Shown here in pieces: positions 9,151 through 61,402 of a stretch of DNA of 64,000 nt (position 1 is its first letter; the number at the start of each line of letters is the position of its first letter). The stretch lies in the NCBI GenBank assembly GCA_963705255.1, contig OY970061.1:992001-1056000 (forward strand). Direction: 5' to 3'. Both the position numbers and the translations under genes were made by a program. The notes below the pieces were generated by a model. That model saw only the letters and a program-made list of their open reading frames with translations, ran no database searches and was not told the origin of the DNA. The DNA comes from an uncultured Methanoregulaceae archaeon. Its GTDB lineage: Archaea > Halobacteriota > Methanomicrobia > Methanomicrobiales > Methanospirillaceae.

Positions 9151-9743
9151 TTCTTATGCTCGGAAATACACCCGGCTTTCCCGGATGTTGCCGTTGCAGT
9201 CTCTGCGATCTTCCGGACAAACTCGTTTTCATCGCAGGTCACACTCGTGAGGTACCCGAGGCTTCTGGGGTCCCCGATAGCAGTGAGGGCGAGTGCGGTT
9301 CCCATCCGCACCCGCCAGTCCGGGTCTTTCAGGACCGCCCCGATCCGGTCTGCAGATGAGGGGTCCGCGATCTGGCCAAGCGCGGCGATGACATGCCTCC
9401 GCACGTCCGCATTCTCGTCTCTGAGCACCGGAAGCAGGGCGTCGACAGCCTTGTGTGCCCCGATCTTCCCGAGTGCTTCGGCTGCCCGCATCCGCACTGA
9501 CCAGTCTCCATCGCGGAGGATGAGGATCAACCGGTCGACGGCTTTCGGGTCACCAATCCGCCCGAGGGCCCATGCCGCCCTCAGCCGGACGACACTGTCC
9601 CGGTCTTCAAGTGCGGAGATGAGAAGATCCACCGCTGGTTCTCCGATTCCTGCAAGGGCGTATGCGGCACCCCAGCGCACATCCTCATTCTTATGGGACA
9701 GATCCCTGATCAGTTCCTGAATTCTTTCCTTTGAGTTATCCAT
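9138..9743 (-). CDS. HEAT/PBS-lyase repeat protein
   Basis: Repeated D.D..VR..AA.ALG.IGD units. Confidence 0.9.
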   Translation of the reverse strand: MDNSKERIQELIRDLSHKNEDVRWGAAYALAGIGEPAVDLLISALEDRDSVVRLRAAWALGRIGDPKAVDRLILILRDGDWSVRMRAAEALGKIGAHKAVDALLPVLRDENADVRRHVIAALGQIADPSSADRIGAVLKDPDWRVRMGTALALTAIGDPRSLGYLTSVTCDENEFVRKIAETATATSGKAGCISEHKNRAG

Positions 9744-51466: not shown

Positions 51467-52417
51467 TTACCTGAGAAGAACCCCAAAAACATCGGAGAAA
51501 CAGCGGAGAGCATCGTCGAATTTTCCGATTTTCAGGAGGGACAGTCCCTTCACGATGCTGGTACGGACATCTTTTACATCGATATAATATGCCTGATCGA
51601 ACGCCCGGGCTGACTCCTCGAGCTTTCCGAGCATGAAGCAGGAGTTGCTCATCACGACCCAGGCATCGGCGATCGAGGGATCGCGTTCGAGGGCCTTTTC
51701 GAGAGCACGGATCGCCTCGGGGTGTTTTCCGATCATGGAGAGGGCAAGCCCTTTCCGGTAAAGTGCTTTTGCGTTTTCCGGGTCTATTGCCAGCGCGCGA
51801 TCAAGAACCTCGAGGGCTTCAGCATACCGTTTCAGGTTGATCAGGGCAACACCTTTTTTGATCAGTGCGGAAAGGTAGAACGGGTATATCCGGAGAGCGC
51901 GGTCGTAACATGAGATCTCTTCGGCATACCGTTTCAGTTTTCCATACGCAAACCCCTTGTTTACCCACGCAGAAAGGTACCGGGGCCGTATCTCCAGAGC
52001 CCGGTCGCAGCAGTGGATCTCTGCATCGAACCTTCCGAGCATCCCCACAGCTACACCCTTATTATTCCAGGCAGTTGCATTCTCGGGATCTATCTCCAGC
52101 GCTCTCTCACAGCATTTCACCTTGTCTTCAAACCGGTCGAGCATGCCATAGGCAAATCCCTTGTTATTCCAGGCATCGACGCAGTCCGGATCGAGTTCGA
52201 TTGCTTTGTTGCAGCACTCGATCTCGTCTTCGTACTTGCCCAGTTTCCCGAGTGCAAACCCCCGTCCCACCCATGCAAGTGCAAGGCCGGGGTCAATGGC
52301 AAGGGCGAGTGAAAACGAGGTAAGCGCATCCTCGTGTCTTCCCTCACGTCCAAGCGAAAGGCCCTCAAGATAAAATTCCCTGCCTTTCTGATGGGGGTCC
52401 TGACTCTCTTCTGACAT
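51467..52417 (-). CDS. TPR repeat protein
   Basis: Multiple AW.NKG..LG.L.RY.E repeats. Confidence 0.9.
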   Translation of the reverse strand: MSEESQDPHQKGREFYLEGLSLGREGRHEDALTSFSLALAIDPGLALAWVGRGFALGKLGKYEDEIECCNKAIELDPDCVDAWNNKGFAYGMLDRFEDKVKCCERALEIDPENATAWNNKGVAVGMLGRFDAEIHCCDRALEIRPRYLSAWVNKGFAYGKLKRYAEEISCYDRALRIYPFYLSALIKKGVALINLKRYAEALEVLDRALAIDPENAKALYRKGLALSMIGKHPEAIRALEKALERDPSIADAWVVMSNSCFMLGKLEESARAFDQAYYIDVKDVRTSIVKGLSLLKIGKFDDALRCFSDVFGVLLR

Positions 52418-52625
52418 GGAAAACATCGAATGCAATTCCTATGGATGAGCGCTCGTAATAAAAGGATCTTAGTGCCCGTGATATTTATTTTCACGGATTG
52501 GTCTCTGCAGCCGCTATTGCCCGACAGCGGTACAGATACACGGAATGATTACCCGGAAGCCAGGTTCTGCCGGATTCAGCTGAAAAACCCAATTTTTTAT
52601 ATATTTTTGGCATAAACTTTCAGAT

Positions 52626-52856
52626 ATGCCTGCGGGACGACCAAAAAAACTGAATAACTATGAACAGATAAAAGTGAGAAAAATCCGGAAGATTTTATCT
52701 GAAAGTAATATCCGGAAATTCGACAAGGTCAATGATTCTGCGCTTCTGAAGACAATTTACATCGATCCTTCGGGGAAAATTTTTATATGCCATGATTTCT
52801 ACGAAAATTCGATGAAAGAGATTTCTGCAATAGTTTCGGGATTTATTGAAAAATAG
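52626..52856 (+). CDS. Small hypothetical protein
   Basis: 76-aa AT-rich ORF with TTTATATA box about 25 bp upstream. Confidence 0.5.
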   Translation: MPAGRPKKLNNYEQIKVRKIRKILSESNIRKFDKVNDSALLKTIYIDPSGKIFICHDFYENSMKEISAIVSGFIEK

Positions 52857-53292
52857 GTGCCTATTTTTGACTCGGGAAACTTGTTGGAATATTCTCCTCC
52901 CCTTTCACGAATACCGGTTTCATATCGTCCATCGTCTCTCCAGAATGGCTGATATCGCGAGGCCGGGACAACGGTCGCACTGCCGGGTATAATCCCTCCG
53001 GTAAAGGATGCCTTTTTGTAAAGGAGATCCCGGACAGACTGATCGAACAGGTGGTATCGTTCCTGCACTACTGATTAAATGAGAATACAATCCTGCATTA
53101 TTTGCGAGGGATACCCGGGTCCACAGCCAGGATCTGGACACAAATCACTATACGAGACAGGGGGAGTTCATTCTGCCGAAGGATTAGGGTTACCCGGCTC
53201 CCTCTGGCACAGAAGTGCCACTGCTCCTTTACGGTGTAAATGCCAAAACAATTTCGGTATATTTATAATATATTGCGAATGAAACTGAATTC

Positions 53293-53880
53293 TTGAAACC
53301 CCAACATCCCGAGGATACCGGATCGTCAAGCCCCCTGGGAACGATCCTGATGGTCATGATCACCATCGTGCTCGCAGCACTCGTCCTGCTCGTTGCCCTC
53401 CAGCTGCCGGGCCTGTCGTACGACCCGACGGTTCCAACCGTGTTTGAGATCACAAAAATCAAGGATATTAAGAATGGCGTGCTGAATTACGATAGTTACA
53501 TGGTAGTAAAAAACTGCGGGAGTTCCAGTTATTATAACTGGAACCTTTTCGTCCTGACTTATGTCAACGGAGCGCAGATACCTGCGGAGATACCAACCTT
53601 AAATGCCAATGCACAGGCCGCCGACCACATCCACCATGGCGTCCAGAATCTTGGGGGATTCGGATCGGAAGGGACAAGGAAAAAAGGCGATGCACTGTGG
53701 GTACCGGGAGCATCCCTTTCGATCGATTACAAGGATGGCACATTCCATCCGGGCGACATGGTCACCATCGAAGTCTACGACAACACGACAAAACAGATCC
53801 TCTCGCGCGACACCTGGCCGCATAAAGACGATCCCGGGGAGAAATTGATGAAACAATATCTCAATCATCGAGGCGCTTGA
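53293..53880 (+). CDS. Archaeal type IV pilin-like protein (DUF1628-type N-terminus)
   Basis: [19 protein letters not shown] class III signal-like segment; [11 protein letters not shown]-terminal strand. Confidence 0.7.
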
Positions 53881-54052
53881 AGACGCCTTTTTTCACCTTG
53901 AGGATCTTGCACTCAGGACAGCGCCATGTATCAGGAATGTCCTCAAAGGCCGTCCCGGGCGCAATCCCGTTTTTGGGGTCTCCCTTGGCCGGATCATAGA
54001 TATAATGGCATTCGAGGCATACCCACCGGGCAAGTTTTGTAACATGTGTCAT
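53861..54052 (-). CDS. Rubredoxin
   Basis: [14 protein letters not shown]...GIAPGT.FEDIPD.W.CPEC. Confidence 0.93.
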
Positions 54053-54152
54053 GATAATACAATTCCTGAACATGTGCCGGATGTATCATTTGATTCACCC
54101 TCCAATCATATGAAAGCATCTCTCATAGCAGCCGGAACGTTCATGGAGCATT

Positions 54153-54722
54153 TTAACAGGGATTGCGGGGATCAGGGGCAGCACTCCGGGCGCAGAGCCG
54201 TGCCACGCGCAATGGTTCGGGGATCTTACCTTCAAGGGTAAAGTCGTTACACAATACTGCCGCATCCCGGTGTTCAATGCCCCATGAACGGATGAAGATG
54301 GTCTGGTGCGTCCGCAGCGCAACCGGTGAACGTTTCCCGAGCTCCATGTACCGGGTCACCCGTGTCAGGTCGTCAGGAAAATGACGGCGGATATCCCCGA
54401 GCAGTCCGTCGGAATCCTCGTAGGTGACACAAATAACCGGGAGGCCGGTCTTTTCATGAATCACAACAGGGCTGATAACGTTAAACCAGGCGATGACGCA
54501 ACCGGACAACATAACCACGTTAAGATCGCTCCGCTCAAGGTCCCGGATCATCGCAAGTATTGTGTCGGTAGCATCCACCCCGCCAACAGTCACTGTGCCA
54601 AACGAGAAGCCGTCAATGCGGAGATCTTTTCGCATCACCACGCCGGCAAGGGTGGACAAGGTTCGCCCGGAATAACTTTCTGCTATACCGAATGCCCGCA
54701 ACCCTTTTTTCGGGACATGCAT
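54153..54722 (-). CDS. DUF99 family (endonuclease V-like) protein
   Basis: GIAES, GVVMR.D..IDG, GG.DAT, WFNVI, IPEPLRVA. Confidence 0.85.
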   Translation of the reverse strand: MHVPKKGLRAFGIAESYSGRTLSTLAGVVMRKDLRIDGFSFGTVTVGGVDATDTILAMIRDLERSDLNVVMLSGCVIAWFNVISPVVIHEKTGLPVICVTYEDSDGLLGDIRRHFPDDLTRVTRYMELGKRSPVALRTHQTIFIRSWGIEHRDAAVLCNDFTLEGKIPEPLRVARLCARSAAPDPRNPC

Positions 54723-54760
54723 AGAAGCACTTATGATAACCGATTAAAAATACTATACCA

Positions 54761-55684
54761 ATGAAATTCAACAAAGACGAGGTCTGCATCCTCATCCCCA
54801 CGCTCAATGAAGGTCCCACTATTGGAACTGTTGTCAGGGAATTCAAGGGACTCGGATACGACCATATTCTCGTAGTTGACGGGAAGAGTACCGATAACAC
54901 GGTAAAAATTGCCCGGGAAGCCGGGGCAAATGTCCGCACACAATCGGGCGTGGGCAAAGGCAATGCAATTATCGAGGCTTTTGAAGTCATCGAGCAGCCT
55001 TATATTCTCATGGTTGACGGTGACGGCACCTACTCGGCAAAAGATGCGGAAAAGATGCTGACCCCCCTGTTCCTGGGATTTGACCAGGTCATCGGGGATC
55101 GCCTCATCAACGCAGAAGAAGGCTCATTCTCTGGGCTCAACCTCTTTGGCAACCATATGCTGAACCTCCTTTTCAAAGTGGCCCACAGCAGGGACCTTCA
55201 TGATATCCTGTCGGGATACCGCGCCTTCACCAAGTTAGCGGTCCAGCAGATGCATCTGAAAGAGAAAGGGTTCGAGATCGAAACGGAAATCTCAGTTGAG
55301 TCCGTGCGGAACGGCCAGAGGATCATGGTCGTCCCCATCCGGTATTCCCGGCGCCCGGGGACGGCGACAAAACTTTCCCCGTTCCATGACGGTATCAAGA
55401 TTGTGAGCACGATATACCGGCTTGCACGGGTCAATAACCCCATGTTCTATTTTGGCATGATGGGCATTTTCACATCCCTCTTGGGCATCCTCACCGGGAT
55501 TTATGTCGTGCAGGAGTGGCTGCACGGGATCAACCACATTCCCCTGACGATCCTCACGGTGCTGCTTATCGTCGTTGGTATAGAAATTTTCATGTTCGGT
55601 ATGATCAGCGATATGCTTCTTGTCTTCCACCGGGAAATTATCCGTGAGATCCAGCTCCTCCAGTCCCCGAAGTCTCCGAAGTAA
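54761..55684 (+). CDS. aglJ: GT2 N-glycosylation glycosyltransferase AglJ-like
   Basis: LIPTLNE, VVDG.STD, MVDGDGTY, DILSGYRAF, FEIETE, two C-terminal TM helices. Confidence 0.88.
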   Translation: MKFNKDEVCILIPTLNEGPTIGTVVREFKGLGYDHILVVDGKSTDNTVKIAREAGANVRTQSGVGKGNAIIEAFEVIEQPYILMVDGDGTYSAKDAEKMLTPLFLGFDQVIGDRLINAEEGSFSGLNLFGNHMLNLLFKVAHSRDLHDILSGYRAFTKLAVQQMHLKEKGFEIETEISVESVRNGQRIMVVPIRYSRRPGTATKLSPFHDGIKIVSTIYRLARVNNPMFYFGMMGIFTSLLGILTGIYVVQEWLHGINHIPLTILTVLLIVVGIEIFMFGMISDMLLVFHREIIREIQLLQSPKSPK

Positions 55685-55707
55685 TCTTTTCTGCCTTGTC
55701 CTGAAAA

Positions 55708-55728
55708 TTTTTTTAATACCACACGGTT
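55708..55728 (+). repeat. Left direct repeat of AT-rich cassette (TTTTTTTAATACCACACGGTT)
   Basis: 20/21 identical to 57017..57037. Confidence 0.8.
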
Positions 55729-55973
55729 GATTGTTAATTATTTAAAAAATAATTTGAATAAAGTTCAATTTCCCCATAGCAGCACTTTAACACCGATGGT
55801 GCGATGCTCTTTTCTGAAAAATCTTAAGTACTAGCGAAAGTGCAATCAATTTGACACTGTTTTTTTCATCCATATACAAATGTGAATAACGACATCACAC
55901 ATTCGATTAAACAATACGTTTATTATTCACCTAATTATAATTGCATTGAATAGCAGATTTGCTGGAATCCCCA

Positions 55974-56528
55974 ATGCCAGATGAAATTCCCCAAATAGAT
56001 GAAAAGTGCGACGAGGAAACTATAGCAAAAGATGAGCTTATTCTAAATTTGATTTCACGTCGTAATGATGCGGAATTTGAAAGAAATAACATTCTTGACA
56101 ACAAAGCAAGTGGCATTATTGGATTTGCTGGAATTATTATCGGTCTACTTGGAACTATAATTTCATTTTTATTAGATAAATTAACTCAGGGATCATCTCT
56201 TTTAATTTACTATAACAGTTATCGAGTAATTTTACTATTTGGAATTTTGTTTTTAGCAGCAGCAATAATCTTATGTTGCTATGCATATTCGATTAAAGTC
56301 TATACGATAGTTCCAAAAACAGATATGTTAATTGAAAATTATGCGAGGGATAAAAAAAAGAATAAATGCACTGTTATTCGTGTTGTTGGTCAAGAAATTT
56401 CTCTAGGAATCTTAAAAAATGCTGCAATTAATGATGAAAAAGCGAAATGTGTGAAGTATGGATTACGATTATATGCCTTTGGAATGGCATTAACCGTACT
56501 TTTTTTTATAGGTCTTTTAATGGTTTAA
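55974..56528 (+). CDS. 3-TM membrane protein (resembles Pycsar-effector/DUF5706-like topology)
   Basis: LDNKASGIIGFAGIIIGLL TM1, TM2, cytoplasmic loop, N..K..C followed by TM3; very AT-rich. Confidence 0.75.
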   Translation: MPDEIPQIDEKCDEETIAKDELILNLISRRNDAEFERNNILDNKASGIIGFAGIIIGLLGTIISFLLDKLTQGSSLLIYYNSYRVILLFGILFLAAAIILCCYAYSIKVYTIVPKTDMLIENYARDKKKNKCTVIRVVGQEISLGILKNAAINDEKAKCVKYGLRLYAFGMALTVLFFIGLLMV

Positions 56529-56540
56529 AGAGGTCAACTT

Positions 56541-56684
56541 ATGGAGAAAGAACAGGTTATTGGTAAAAAAGCACCGCCGGAAAAATCCAGTGATACCCAA
56601 ACAGTGTCATGGGGCACTAATGATCGAACATTAAGAGATGTTCAACTGAATAAACAACCTATTCCGAAAAGAGGGAAGAAGTAA
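56541..56684 (+). CDS. SWGT-motif peptide 1 (47 aa)
   Basis: MEKEQVIGKKAPPEKSSDTQTVSWGTNDRTLRDVQLNKQPIPKRGKK; GAGGT RBS at 56530-56534. Confidence 0.8.
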   Translation: MEKEQVIGKKAPPEKSSDTQTVSWGTNDRTLRDVQLNKQPIPKRGKK

Positions 56685-56816
56685 ATGGCGGAGAAAGAAA
56701 AAACCGATGAGAAGCCAAAAACAGAATCATGGGGTACTGAAGATCCTAAGATTAGAGAAGATCGAGCGTTATCAAGAAATGAGGAGCGCAAGAAGAAAGA
56801 ACTAAACGAAGAGTGA
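56685..56816 (+). CDS. SWGT-motif peptide 2 (43 aa)
   Basis: MAEKEKTDEKPKTESWGTEDPKIREDRALSRNEERKKKELNEE; ATG abuts the previous TAA. Confidence 0.8.
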   Translation: MAEKEKTDEKPKTESWGTEDPKIREDRALSRNEERKKKELNEE

Positions 56817-56820
56817 TCAA

Positions 56821-56955
56821 ATGACTGACGAACCTAAAAAAAGGCAGGAACCAACTAATACAACAAGCTGGGGAACAGCTGATCCAAGTTTGAGAGATGA
56901 AATCAAAGAAGCAAGAGTTCCTCGAAAACGTGATCCCAATGAAATAATCAAATAA
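56821..56955 (+). CDS. SWGT-motif peptide 3 (44 aa)
   Basis: MTDEPKKRQEPTNTTSWGTADPSLRDEIKEARVPRKRDPNEIIK; starts 4 bp after the previous stop. Confidence 0.8.
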   Translation: MTDEPKKRQEPTNTTSWGTADPSLRDEIKEARVPRKRDPNEIIK

Positions 56956-57016
56956 TCTTCTTTTACAATTTTTATAAATGTTTAATTATAGATATTTCAA
57001 AAATTGGTTTTCTATG

Positions 57017-57037
57017 TTTTTTTAATACCACACTGTT
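57017..57037 (+). repeat. Right direct repeat of AT-rich cassette (TTTTTTTAATACCACACTGTT)
   Basis: 20/21 identical to 55708..55728; GC content returns to host level after it. Confidence 0.8.
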
Positions 57038-57328
57038 ACGGTAAATACCTTGAGAAATAACCGGAATGATGGTAGGGCAGTGCTGAACCCGCCTGTCTCG
57101 TATGGAGTGGGTGGGACTCAGGAATATAAAAAGCAACAGAGGTGAAAAAAGTCATCGGCTGCAGCATTTCTTGCACGCTTTTATGCATACCGGAGAGCGC
57201 CGGTTCAGGTGAGCAATGCGGGATAAAGCGAGGGGAATCGATGTTCGTTCGCAAAGAGAGAGAAGAACAATTTCCGGATTGGGATTTTTTCCGAAAACCT
57301 TTTTTGTGTATTTCCTAAAGAATTACTT

Positions 57329-57547
57329 ATGCAGTCGATAGATGGGTATATCGGGTATACGCGTCGGGAATATTGTAATGATGTGAAATGCCCGATACAA
57401 CTGCTCCTGAATAACGAAGTGGAAAAATCTCCCAAATATGAAGAAATCCGGGCGATTTGTGCTTCCAATTGTCTCCACAGCACCCATGAATTTCACCACT
57501 GGTTGACAGGGAAGGGATATCTCGTCGTCAGACCGGAGCACAAATAA
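57329..57547 (+). CDS. Small Cys/His putative metal-binding protein
   Basis: YC...KCP.Q, IC...C.H...FHHWL...GY. Confidence 0.7.
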   Translation: MQSIDGYIGYTRREYCNDVKCPIQLLLNNEVEKSPKYEEIRAICASNCLHSTHEFHHWLTGKGYLVVRPEHK

Positions 57548-57597
57548 CCCCAGCTTTTTATACATTTGTGTATCACTAATTCTCGTGAAGTGTCCCC

Positions 57598-58422
57598 ATG
57601 GTACATGCATATCTTGATATTGGAATCCAGAGCCGGATGAACCGGATAATCAATCCGAAAGATAACCGGGTAGTGATGCTTGCGATAGACCATCCCTATT
57701 TCCAGGGACCGACAACGGGCCTCCGCACCATGAGTAACACCATAACAACACTCCTCCCCTATTGCGATTGCCTGATGACGACACGCGGGGCAGTGCGGTC
57801 CAATATTGCGCCCGAAAATGTCGGGTCAAAACCCATCATGTTACGTGTTACCGGGGGAAACAGCGTCTTAAATGAAGAGTTAAGTGATGAAAAGCTCACG
57901 GTTACAATAAAAGAAGCCATCCGGATGGATGCGGCCGGTGTCGCGGTCAGTGTGTATATAGGCTCTGCCAATCAGCAACAGACTATTCTCAACCTCACCG
58001 ACATGATCAACCAGGCCGGCGAATACGGAATTCCCGTTCTGGCAGTAACAGCCGTGGGGAAAAACATGGCCCGGGATTTGCGCTATCTGGCGCTTGCATC
58101 CCGTATCTGCCAGGATGCCGGGGCCCGGATTATCAAGACTTATTATTGTGAGGAATTTTCCCGGCTTGTCGACTGGGTTTCCCCGACTGCTGTCGTGGTT
58201 GCAGGAGGGAAATACTCAAGTCCTCCTGACGCTCTCCAGATGGCCTACGACTCTGTCCAGGCCGGTGCTGTCGGAGTTGATTTCGGACGAAATATTTTCC
58301 AGGATGCCAATCCTGTCGGCATGATCAAAGCCATTGGTTCAATTGTCCATGGAAATCATACCGTAAAGGAAGCCCTGGATATTTACAATGCATGCTTACC
58401 CGGTGCATGCAAGCTCGACTGA
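57598..58422 (+). CDS. lsrF: LsrF-like class I aldolase/thiolase
   Basis: MLAIDH.YFQGPTTGL, AVTAVGK.M.RD.RY..LA.RI, IKTYYC, AGG, GVDFGRNIFQ. Confidence 0.85.
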   Translation: MVHAYLDIGIQSRMNRIINPKDNRVVMLAIDHPYFQGPTTGLRTMSNTITTLLPYCDCLMTTRGAVRSNIAPENVGSKPIMLRVTGGNSVLNEELSDEKLTVTIKEAIRMDAAGVAVSVYIGSANQQQTILNLTDMINQAGEYGIPVLAVTAVGKNMARDLRYLALASRICQDAGARIIKTYYCEEFSRLVDWVSPTAVVVAGGKYSSPPDALQMAYDSVQAGAVGVDFGRNIFQDANPVGMIKAIGSIVHGNHTVKEALDIYNACLPGACKLD

Positions 58423-58464
58423 TTTTTTATCTCTTAAACAGTTACTCTCCACTCGTGAACAGGA

Positions 58465-59517
58465 ATGAAAGCAGCGGTCTATTATAAGAACAGTGACATC
58501 CGCACCGAGGATGTTGAAGATCCGGCAGTCGGACCAGGAGAGATCAAGGTCAGGATCATGGCGTGCGGAGTGTGCGGGTCGGATGTCATGGAATGGTACC
58601 GGATTAAGCGTGCGGGAAGGCCCGGCGGGATCGGGGCCTTTGGGCATGAATGCACGGGAATCATTGCAGAAGCCGGTCCCGGCGCAGACAAAAAATGGAA
58701 GGTGGGAGACCGGGTCGTGGTCACCCATCATGTACCATGCACTACGTGTAATGCCTGTATACGCGGGCATACGACCGCATGTGACACGCTGCAAAAAACC
58801 AAATTCAAGAATGCGTACGGGGCGTTTGCGGAATATGTGGTGCTGCCCGCAATCAACGTGGACCGGGGTATATTACGCCTCCCCGAATCGGTTTCTTTTG
58901 ATGCGGGAACCTTTGTTGAACCCCTCGGGTGTGTAGTCCGCGGGCAGCAACTGGCTCCGACCTCGGATGGCCGGTCAGTCCTTATCATTGGCGCCGGGAT
59001 CACCGGACTGCTGCATGTCCAGGCAGCCCGGCTGAACGGTGCGGGATTTATTGCTGTTTCCAACCCGAGTCCTGATCGGTTGAAGGCCGCCCGGAAATTC
59101 GGTGCCGATGCAACCATTTCCGCTACGGAAGATGTTCCCGGAAGGTTTAAAGAATTAAATGGCGGCCTGGGCGCAGACACCGTCATCATGACCGCACCGG
59201 TTCCCGTCTGCGTGAAACAGTCGCTTGACGCAGTCGGACCCGGGGGTACGATCTTATTTTTTGCCCCCACAAATCCTGAGATCCAATCCGAAATCAATCT
59301 CTGGAACCTGTGGCAGAAAGAGATCACAATCACCCATTCCTATGCTGCCGATCTCCATAACCTGACAACTGCCCTGAAATGGATCCAGTATAACCGGATA
59401 AATGTAGCCGATATGATAACCCATGTTCTTCCCTTACAAGAAACGGCTGAAGGTTTTCTCCTGACTGCCCGGCACCGGGACGGTAGTTTAAAAGTTATCA
59501 TCCATCCACAGGAATAA
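58465..59517 (+). CDS. Zn-dependent (sorbitol/threonine-type) dehydrogenase
   Basis: CGVCGSD, GHE, C..C..C.......C, GAGITG. Confidence 0.9.
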   Translation: MKAAVYYKNSDIRTEDVEDPAVGPGEIKVRIMACGVCGSDVMEWYRIKRAGRPGGIGAFGHECTGIIAEAGPGADKKWKVGDRVVVTHHVPCTTCNACIRGHTTACDTLQKTKFKNAYGAFAEYVVLPAINVDRGILRLPESVSFDAGTFVEPLGCVVRGQQLAPTSDGRSVLIIGAGITGLLHVQAARLNGAGFIAVSNPSPDRLKAARKFGADATISATEDVPGRFKELNGGLGADTVIMTAPVPVCVKQSLDAVGPGGTILFFAPTNPEIQSEINLWNLWQKEITITHSYAADLHNLTTALKWIQYNRINVADMITHVLPLQETAEGFLLTARHRDGSLKVIIHPQE

Positions 59518-59811
59518 CATCTTTTTGCTCCATTATCTGCATTGTGGTCTGATGCATTCGCGGGACGGTTGGAATAGCAGCTCATTTCAGATTACGAAGA
59601 AAACGATCTCATCGGGTCCCGACCGTGCAGAAGAACCGGTTCCCGGATATTCTTTAAAAAAAAGTTTTTAGGCCTTTTTTTACCTTTCGCGGGAATGCAA
59701 GAGATTATTACTACTTCTGACATAACCCCTTTTTATACAGGATCGCACTCATCTCGCTTCTCCGGCATTCCGTTGCGAACGAAATGCGGCCCTGGATTCA
59801 GGATGTGAATC

Positions 59812-61402
59812 GTGAATCTGCGACAACCCAATGCAAATGAGGCAACAGGTACCATAAACCGTTCGAGAAATGTCTCCCCAATGTCCGGGATCTGTTCCCG
59901 GTGTATTGACGGGTGCAAGGGAAACTGCGAGTTATGGCTGTCATCATTCCGGGGGAGGGAAGTACCTCTATCCCGGACCATTCGGGGAAGTCACTGCGGG
60001 GGCTGACAAGAATTATCCCGTCGACTATTCCCACCTCAACATCCAGGGGTATGCCGTCGGTGCCAAAGGTATGCCTGAAGGTGTAGAGGCAGGTCCTGAT
60101 ACCGCGGTCTTCTCATCGGTCAATACCGAGACATCGTACGGGTGGAATCTCAAAGTAAAGATGCGCCTCCCCATCTTTACCGGTGCTTTGGGTTCGACTG
60201 AGATCGCACGGGTGAACTGGGAGCAGATTGCAATTGGAGCAGCGATTTCCGGAATAACCTGTGTCTGCGGTGAAAATGTCTGTGGTGTTGACCCCCAGCT
60301 TGAACTGGACATGAATGGAAAAGTGAAAAAATCGCCGGAAATGGACAGGCGCGTGGAAATTTACCGCCGTTTTTCTGAAGGATACGGTGAAATGCTGGTC
60401 CAGATGAATGTCGAGGACACACGGATCGGTGCTGCTGAATATGTGGCGAGCAGGCATAACTTGGAAACGATCGAACTCAAATGGGGCCAAGGTGCAAAAA
60501 GTATCGGGGGTGAGATCAAAGTCCCGACTCTGGAACGCGCGGCCGAGTTGAAAAAAAGAGGGTATATCGTACTACCGGACCCGACGGTGAAAGTACATCA
60601 GATATCCTTTAAATCAGGTGCCGTAAGGGAGTTCGAACGTCACTCAAGACTAGGGTTTGTGACCCGGGAGGGATTTCTGGAAGAAGTTGATCGTCTCCGG
60701 GATATCGGCTTCAAACGGATCACCCTGAAGACCGGGGCCTATTCCGCGGTGGAACTTGCAATGGCCATCCGGTATGGAGCAGAAGCAAAGATAGACCTGC
60801 TCACCATCGATGGGGCCTCGGGAGGTACGGGTATGAGTCCGTGGCCGATGATGAATGAGTGGGGGATCCCCACTTTTTACCTCCAGTCACTGATGTACGA
60901 ATTCTGCGAGCGGTTGAGCCGCAAGGGTATGAAAGTCCCGGATATCGCGATGGCCGGGGGGTTCACGGATGAGCCAAACGTCTTCAAGGCACTGGCCATG
61001 GGAAGCCCTTACGTTAAGGCGGTCTGTATGGGGAGGGGCCTGATGATTCCCGCGATGGTGGGAAAAAATATCGGCAAGTGGCTTGCTGCCGGTGAACTGC
61101 CGAAAACCGTCTCGAAATACGGGACGGTTGCAGAAAAGATATTTGTCTGTTATGAGGATCTGAAGCAGAAATATGGAGAACGTATGAAAGAAATACCACT
61201 CGGCGCACTTGGCATGTATACCTTTGCCGAGAAGTTCCGGACCGGTTTCCAGCAGATTATGGCAGGAACCAGAAATTTCTCCATACCGTATGTTTCGCGC
61301 CGGGACGTCATGGCGCTTACCGAGGAGGCTGCAACTATTTCCGGTATCGCCTACGTAATGAAGGCTTATAAAGATGAGGCGCTTGAAATTCTGCTGGACT
61401 GA
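59812..61402 (+). CDS. FMN-binding glutamate synthase family protein (frameshift near 59960)
   Basis: NLRQPNANEA...SGICSRCIDGC, YPGPFG, ELKWGQGAK, TLKTGAY, DGASGGTGMSPW. Confidence 0.88.

Follow-up and report, generated by a model that had tools for sequence, protein, structure and literature searches.

This locus raises the question of whether a gene for a small membrane protein and the three very short open reading frames (ORFs) behind it form one genetic system, and what such a system might do. It lies in a stretch of 64,000 nucleotides (nt), here called the window, from an uncultured Methanoregulaceae archaeon (assembly GCA_963705255.1, contig OY970061.1, positions 992,001 to 1,056,000), and coordinates given without a prefix are those of the window. 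Reading the ORFs and motifs bore out the layout proposed in an earlier sequence-only reading: directly behind a gene for a protein of 184 amino acids (aa) with three transmembrane (TM) helices lie three coupled ORFs, here peptides 1 to 3, which are 47, 43 and 44 aa long and share an SWGTxD motif (Table 1). The successive gaps from the TM gene through the three peptides are 12, 0 and 4 nt; peptides 1 and 2 share a frame with a single TAA between them, and peptide 3 is in another frame, beginning 4 nt past the TGA of peptide 2. As that reading also claimed, the cassette contains no cyclase, protease, radical SAM enzyme or transporter. Comparison with related genomes shows that the TM gene and the peptides are one conserved unit, found together wherever either was found, and that the cassette is probably a small, horizontally acquired, self-contained module of two parts.

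The evidence for a unit comes from co-occurrence. A word-indexed search returned 8 close homologues of the TM protein, and exhaustive phmmer searching gave 212 representatives at E ≤ 1e-3, 50 at E ≤ 1e-10 and 6 at E ≤ 1e-30. The module is rare and cleanly defined, with TM profile matches in 5 of the 400 other genomes of the class and in 1 of the 104 genomes searched in the genus. One homologue, P0002, is 87% identical, and the TM protein of the window shares 61% identity with its counterpart at the metagenome locus L002 and 58% with that at another, L003. These two loci, the window and five genomes of the same order make up a set of eight close loci with TM homologues at E ≤ 1e-27. All eight have two to four separate same-strand ORFs of 39–54 aa directly downstream of the TM gene, each with W-x(3-4)-D-x-x-[LI], which settles in the affirmative whether homologous TM genes have motif-bearing peptides behind them, a check the sequence-only reading had proposed. 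Intergenic gaps across the set run from −17 to +58 nt, the frame relations of adjacent peptides vary between loci, and nowhere are the peptides fused. One extra motif ORF, at L009, had no clear start and was excluded from the alignment.

A profile of these peptides matched in exactly the 6 TM-bearing genomes among 401 of the order, and all 16 matches adjoin the TM gene with none elsewhere; as these same loci supplied the profile, what is telling is that no unlinked copies turned up. The peptides of L039, in a genome of another order that had no part in the profile, were found at E = 1.3e-6 and 2.6e-6 among 3399 six-frame segments. Run against a collection of 5.8 billion proteins, the profile retrieved 11 proteins of 39–74 aa, all unnamed or labelled ‘hypothetical protein’ and with Methanomicrobium, Methanoregula and Methanolacinia as source names, most of them peptides of loci already in the set. 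The same profile found no longer, fused protein, which is weak evidence; with the lack of fusions in the eight loci it speaks against the possibility, raised at the outset, that the ORFs are fragments of one longer repeat protein in relatives. The genes next to the cassette differ in every locus (aminoacyl-tRNA synthetase, ribonucleotide reductase, CheR, RadC, Lhr helicase, sensor kinases and others), and the peptides are the sole conserved partners of the TM gene. Their copy number, two to four, changes through tandem duplication; at L010 a recent duplication has left two copies 89% identical in DNA.

The small ORFs themselves are most probably real genes, neither chance ORFs nor pieces of one protein. 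The motifs in the window, TVSWGTNDRTLRD, TESWGTEDPKIRE and TTSWGTADPSLRD, have [ST]-x-S-W-G-T-x-D-x-x-[LI]-R-[DE] in common, and overall identity among the three peptides is ~32%. It had been proposed that conservation acts on the peptide, with different codons for the same motif residues, and both parts of this proved right. The motif codons in peptides 1, 2 and 3 are TCA/TCA/AGC for Ser, GGC/GGT/GGA for Gly and ACT/ACT/ACA for Thr, and the DNA copies of the motif region are 60–71% alike over 45 nt. An alignment of 23 peptides has the same W and D throughout, and an L conserved to at least 90%, within local variants of the forms WG[TKDEQ]xD, Wx[TAK]xD and WxSPRDPxL. Across 25 peptides W is TGG in all 25, D is GAT in 21 and GAC in 4, and the L/I position is CTT in 11, TTA in 6, TTG in 4 and CTC in 2 for L and ATT in 2 for I. 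The conserved residues persist through codon changes, and it is the peptide on which conservation acts, not the DNA. A match of 4 nt or longer to a Shine-Dalgarno-like consensus lies at −16 to −4 of 21 of the 25 peptide starts; among 1288 other ATGs of these loci, taken as background, the share is 22.6%, an enrichment whose p-value is overstated because the peptides are related to each other.

The peptides also keep their places. Peptide 2 is 48% and 44% identical to its positional orthologues in L002 and L003, and peptide 3 is 45% and 43% identical to its own, as against 19–39% for non-corresponding pairs between the window and these loci; for peptide 1 the correspondence is weaker (28% and 23%). 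All are highly charged, with 10–29% hydrophobic residues, no signal- or leader-like segment and no Cys-rich core. An AlphaFold2 model of peptide 3 (predicted local distance difference test score, pLDDT, 68.8) is coil up to the conserved D and then forms a short helix at residues 22–32, which fits a short linear motif plus a docking helix. The peptides had no meaningful match in Pfam, NCBIfam or PHROGs; a lone PHROG match of peptide 2 to an excisionase (E = 0.086) was rejected as noise. An ESM Atlas search with peptide 3 likewise returned nothing, its top score being 0.79. Rfam had no match at E ≤ 1 in 55600–57200, so the peptide array is not a known RNA family. Four DNA runs, all from one study, contain parts of the stretch and are uninformative on expression.

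The TM protein is modelled by AlphaFold2, from 69 sequences, as an all-helical protein (pLDDT 91.5) with helices at residues 14–70, 74–106, 116–124 and 131–183. It has three TM helices, with D-x-K-A before TM1 and again before TM3, and K44 and K156 are nearly invariant among the 69 family members; in the model a helical cytosolic stalk is continuous with TM1 and TM3. Homologues in databases begin at the ATG and have a length of 184 aa. The sequence-only reading had likened this layout to the membrane effectors of Pycsar, a comparison that stood in part. The PADLOC PycTM model PDLC02364 matches the protein at E = 3.8e-5 over profile positions 23–149 of 160, and PADLOC PycTM models match 36 of the 69 family members at E ≤ 1e-3, whereas the Pfam PycTM model, PF18967, failed. 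A precomputed table assigns PF18967 to 7 of the 8 close homologues, at an unspecified threshold. The nearest ESM Atlas clusters (scores 0.94–0.95) are bacterial hypothetical proteins, and one of them has PF18967 on 10% of its members. Foldseek found 0 matches to the model in the PDB at E ≤ 1e-3. A complex prediction of the TM protein with peptide 1 scored 0.04 against a mark of 0.32, with controls not run, and is evidence neither way on binding. The TM protein at L002:3485-4522 and the protein P0009 are ~345 aa long, with an extra N-terminal hydrophobic region of ~165 aa that is either a fusion or the product of an upstream start.

Comparison with characterised systems helps to place the module. 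A 2026 preprint describes PycTM and PucTM as ‘pJV1-spdB3 family 3TM’ effectors and EcPucTM as a hexameric cylinder in which TM2 lines a channel of ~15 Å and whose cytosolic part is helical and bears a beta-sheet appendage or nucleotide-binding domain; its phenotype is abortive infection, and a ligand-bound PucTM structure is said there not yet to have been obtained (10.64898/2026.08.12.744502). The protein studied here resembles these effectors in being a small 3-TM protein with a helical cytosolic part and a PADLOC PycTM match that runs nearly end to end. Its distribution is accessory and sporadic as well, and relatives in a sister subfamily adjoin restriction-modification and TIR genes. In contrast, neither the locus nor the genome has a partner cyclase: a search of the 2.6-Mb single-contig genome (marker completeness 89.5%) for the class III cyclase family PF00211, which did detect it in control genomes, came up empty at E ≤ 0.01. 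There was no cyclase among the nearest neighbours in 6 related loci, nor among the best 25 of the 87 Pfam families shared by at least 2 of 97 flank ORFs. With no class III cyclase in cassette or genome, and PF18967 failing, the module is not Pycsar. Its conserved partner is an array of motif peptides, of which the available parts of the literature on PycTM effectors make no mention; motif peptides beside PycTM-like genes are not described in what is available on PycTM/Pycsar and SpdB3 effectors, and supplementary gene-neighbourhood tables may bear on the point.

The cassette has the general layout of a toxin-antitoxin module, a compact operon of coupled genes that is accessory and mobile. The likeness, which does not come from a family match, is to type II-like systems with the toxin gene first, as in higBA and hicAB, and extends to the sporadic occurrence, the tight translational coupling and the varying neighbourhoods. 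It differs in having two to four paralogous candidates for the antitoxin where such modules have one, and no DNA-binding fold. A tandem array of short units directly beside an effector gene also recalls ToxIN, a type III toxin-antitoxin system with tandem antitoxin repeats. The repeats here are, however, conserved as peptide and not as RNA, as the low DNA identity and the synonymous changes indicate, every unit comes with a start codon and a Shine-Dalgarno-like site of its own, and no Rfam family is present. The cassette lacks the leader-core precursors with a modifying enzyme or exporter that mark clusters for bacteriocins or for ribosomally synthesised and post-translationally modified peptides (RiPPs).

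Beyond the close loci, a sample of 400 other genomes from the phylum included 56 with a member of the broader TM family. A further 28 distant loci were read, and only cases with motif-bearing peptides were used. At L040 a peptide with WDDPRDQKL lies ~570 nt downstream of the TM gene. In the related genomes of L044, L046, L047, L049, L050, L052 and L053 there is a single charged downstream peptide with [VA]-x-[IR]-x-P-D-x-x-L, a motif that has the spacing of the WxSPRD class but V or A where that class has W; that of L047 is continuous with a 226-aa ORF. L005 and L006 are the same in sequence; their TM protein is 26% identical to ours, and the motif, as YWKTGDPALRAKV, stands at the N-terminus of a 132-aa membrane protein that is convergently encoded 36 nt from the TM gene and gave a single weak profile match (E = 0.0075). 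The remaining distant loci read had no motif peptide. The variants would extend across the phylum as single-peptide, V-for-W forms and a membrane-anchored form, and the module appears confined so far to this one archaeal phylum. In the sister subfamily, which has a single peptide, the TM gene abuts an Eco57I/TaqI_C-type restriction-modification gene at L046, L051 and L052, and at L049 and L050 there is a TIR_2 protein nearby, together with ORFs that resemble HicA and HicB by eye. As these genomes are interrelated, the defence context is a hint and not a statistic. The distant TM homologues of L045, L053 and L065 have in-frame stop codons and are probably pseudogenes.

How the cassette came to its present site can be read in part from its borders. 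It is an AT-rich island with a GC content of 0.27–0.41 as against ~0.5–0.57 around it, and in 7 of the 8 loci the cassette stands at 0.31–0.38 against flanks of 0.45–0.62. A 21-nt direct repeat marks both ends of the island in the window; its two copies are identical at 20 of 21 positions, and their 13-nt core occurs exactly nowhere else in the 2.6-Mb genome. A Logan contig of run X4 joins 55729 to 57038, skipping 1308 nt, as would an empty site with one repeat copy; this is weak evidence, coming from one contig at a depth of 2.1 with 37 nt on the shorter side and a likeness threshold of 85. Synteny with same-genus genomes ends at 55690 and returns near 59812, and the cassette is missing at the syntenic site there. 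The cassette contains no recombinase. No flanking direct repeats of at least 16 nt were found in the 7 other loci, so the repeat-bounded structure holds for this window only. Sequences similar to the repeat, over 27–40 nt, occur at two intergenic sites of another genome of the genus. The repeat motif, TTTTTTTAATACCACAC..TTGA, lies at 55708–55747 and 57017–57037 and recurs at these two sites, L075:1992-2031 and L076:2059-2085, once right after a stop codon; it could serve as a terminator or promoter that has been conserved, or else in recombination.

Within the left part of the island is a fragment that resembles the 3' end and downstream flank of tRNA-Glu(CTC), with 90% identity over 51 nt to the same-genus genome G274. 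It resembles an attachment site (att) and is not a functional tRNA; ARAGORN found no tRNA in 52000–60000, and the intact tRNA-Glu(CTC) of the genome lies ~83 kb away. Genome G274 itself has, directly downstream of its tRNA-Glu(CTC), an AT-rich island (L074:2057-3500; GC ~0.30, at least 1.4 kb) that shares its opening ~37 nt with the left part of the cassette. The ORFs of this island are all short, and the 2 kb that were read contain no integrase. Among the related loci a tRNA lies near the cassette in 1 of 8, namely L070 (genome G070), where tRNA-Leu(TAA) at 9202–9285 is ~475 nt upstream; we regard this as a second hint of tRNA-linked insertion.

Table 1. The cassette, its borders and its neighbours, in window coordinates
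Feature	Coordinates	Strand	Remarks
TM gene, 184 aa	55974..56528	+	ATG start; 189 aa from alternative TTG at 55959
Peptide 1, 47 aa	56541..56684	+	net charge +5; W is residue 24 (SWGTNDRTLRD); GAGGT upstream
Peptide 2, 43 aa	56685..56816	+	W is residue 16 (SWGTEDPKIRE); ATG abuts TAA of peptide 1
Peptide 3, 44 aa	56821..56955	+	W is residue 17 (SWGTADPSLRD); tail ...PRKRDPNEIIK
21-nt direct repeat, left copy	55708..55728	.	24 nt past GT2 stop, start of AT-rich island
21-nt direct repeat, right copy	57017..57037	.	62 nt past peptide 3 stop, end of AT-rich island
tRNA-Glu(CTC) 3'-end-like fragment + downstream flank	55771..55821	+	90% over 51 nt to G274 (same genus)
GT2 glycosyltransferase gene	54761-55684		left flank of cassette
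DeoC/LacD-type aldolase gene	57598-58422		right flank of cassette
Rubredoxin-like small ORF and Endonuclease dU (PF01949) gene	53861-54073 and 54153-54722	-	upstream of GT2 gene
Small Cys-rich ORF, aldolase and Zn-type alcohol dehydrogenase-like genes	57318-59528		87% DNA identity to G008 (different family)

The rubredoxin-like ORF and the Endonuclease dU gene on the left are ordinary core genes, syntenic with same-genus genomes. The block on the right that contains the aldolase gene looks like a recent horizontal transfer beside the cassette: the rest of the window is ~67–69% identical to genome G008, and same-genus genomes are without the block at this site.

For the function of the module we tentatively favour, on comparative grounds, a self-contained membrane-effector module under the control of its peptides, which would act as labile inhibitors in a toxin-antitoxin or abortive-infection logic. 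One part would be a small 3-TM protein of the PycTM/pJV1-SpdB3 kind, and the other a set of translationally coupled cytosolic micro-proteins of 40–50 aa, three in this case, with a predicted common plan of a disordered, charged N-terminal half, the W-x(3-4)-D-x-x-L motif leading into a short helix, and a charged, often basic tail. By analogy with PycTM and PucTM, which are membrane effectors of abortive infection, the membrane protein would oligomerise to a channel that stops or kills the cell, and the peptides would replace the cyclase and its cyclic nucleotide as the input to that channel. Docked through their motif on the conserved cytosolic helical stalk they would hold the channel closed, and their loss or titration, for instance through shut-off of host translation by a virus or through loss of the element, would open it. 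The direction of control, inhibitor over activator, is the weakest step of this proposal.

Several observations weigh against the proposal. The kinship of the TM protein with PycTM is weak, and by sequence it would be a distant PycTM-like member of the pJV1-SpdB3 family: PF18967 gives no match to it at E ≤ 1 and matches just 1 of the 69 family members at E ≤ 0.01, and its all-helical model has neither the nucleotide-binding domain nor the beta-sheet appendage of EcPucTM. Loci with the W-type motif have housekeeping genes as neighbours and are not in defence islands, and the AT-richness of the cassette is partly a by-product of coding rich in Lys, Glu, Ile and Phe. Toxin-first order is the less common layout among toxin-antitoxin modules. 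That peptides of classes 2 and 3, and weakly those of class 1, are kept as distinct positional orthologues while the TM proteins are 58–61% identical suggests different roles or a hetero-complex over a mere dosage effect of antitoxin. At L005 the motif protein is anchored in the membrane and encoded convergently, as would suit a stable subunit more than a labile antitoxin, and the basic peptide tails could bind nucleic acid.

Two other accounts keep the membrane channel and change the part played by the peptides or by the channel as a whole. In the one, the logic is the opposite and the peptides are activators, or sensors or decoys bound, cut or modified by an invader, or else obligatory channel subunits. 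The recent tandem duplication at L010 and the fast-diverging flanks around a fixed motif are typical of sensors in an arms race, the positional orthology of the peptides, clear in classes 2 and 3, would suit activators or subunits, and so would the fusion of the motif to a membrane protein in L005. However, no viral partner is known for such a sensor, there is no evidence of cleavage sites or modification, and the strict translational coupling suits stoichiometric partners of either sign; we consider this account unlikely, though worth keeping in view. In the other, the TM protein and small accessory subunits make up a membrane channel or assembly that works for the mobile element carrying it or for the physiology of the host, as in entry exclusion, SpdB3-like passage of DNA or ions, or a stress response. 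The family is named after a plasmid spread protein, pJV1 SpdB3; the cassette has its att-like tRNA-Glu fragment and sits in a variable region, and the W-type loci are outside defence islands. Set against this, in the loci read neither the cassette nor the genes next to it include an integrase or a gene for replication or transfer, the TM protein has no tblastn match in plasmid and phage collections and no match in PHROGs, and the sister subfamily adjoins restriction-modification and TIR genes, and we hold a non-immune role to be similarly improbable.

Far less probable is that the small ORFs encode precursors which are exported or modified in the manner of RiPPs or archaeocins, and that the membrane protein exports them or confers immunity to them. 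A tandem array of paralogous small ORFs that share a conserved core beside a membrane protein would look much like this, and the sequence-only reading had offered precursors processed in trans as its second option. That option found no support: the flanks show no recurring enzyme for modification, protease or ABC exporter (among the best 25 of the 87 shared Pfam families), the 184-aa 3-TM protein has no transporter domain, and the peptides, charged, leaderless and without a Cys-rich core, are unlike such precursors. Even less credence can be given to the idea that the small ORFs are not genes at all, being chance ORFs in AT-rich DNA or the broken pieces of one repeat protein. The lone TAA between peptides 1 and 2 in their common frame invites it, yet all eight close loci have separate ORFs with their own ATG and with varying frame relations, Shine-Dalgarno-like sites are enriched, the invariant residues survive codon changes, and the peptide profile is specific across 401 genomes, with no fused form found (weak evidence).

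A more novel reading would be an immune or addiction channel gated by peptides, that is a PycTM-like pore in which the cyclase and cyclic-nucleotide input has been swapped for encoded short-linear-motif peptides. Distinct paralogues would then occupy cytosolic sites of an oligomeric, possibly hexameric, channel, and the trigger would be turnover of the peptides or their capture by an invader. We regard this reading as possible and still rather doubtful. If true, the effector superfamily would gain its first micro-protein-controlled member, and archaea a new class of defence or toxin-antitoxin system. The question on which the family bears is how the small membrane effectors of nucleotide-signalling defence are switched on, and a branch of the effector family without a cyclase, always accompanied by motif micro-proteins, would open the cytosolic control surface of these channels to simple genetics. 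The peptides also add a conserved family of archaeal proteins of less than 50 aa, mostly missed by routine annotation or labelled ‘hypothetical’. They suggest that arrays of micro-proteins can be integral to accessory modules of methanogen-type archaea, in which few defence or toxin-antitoxin systems have been tested.

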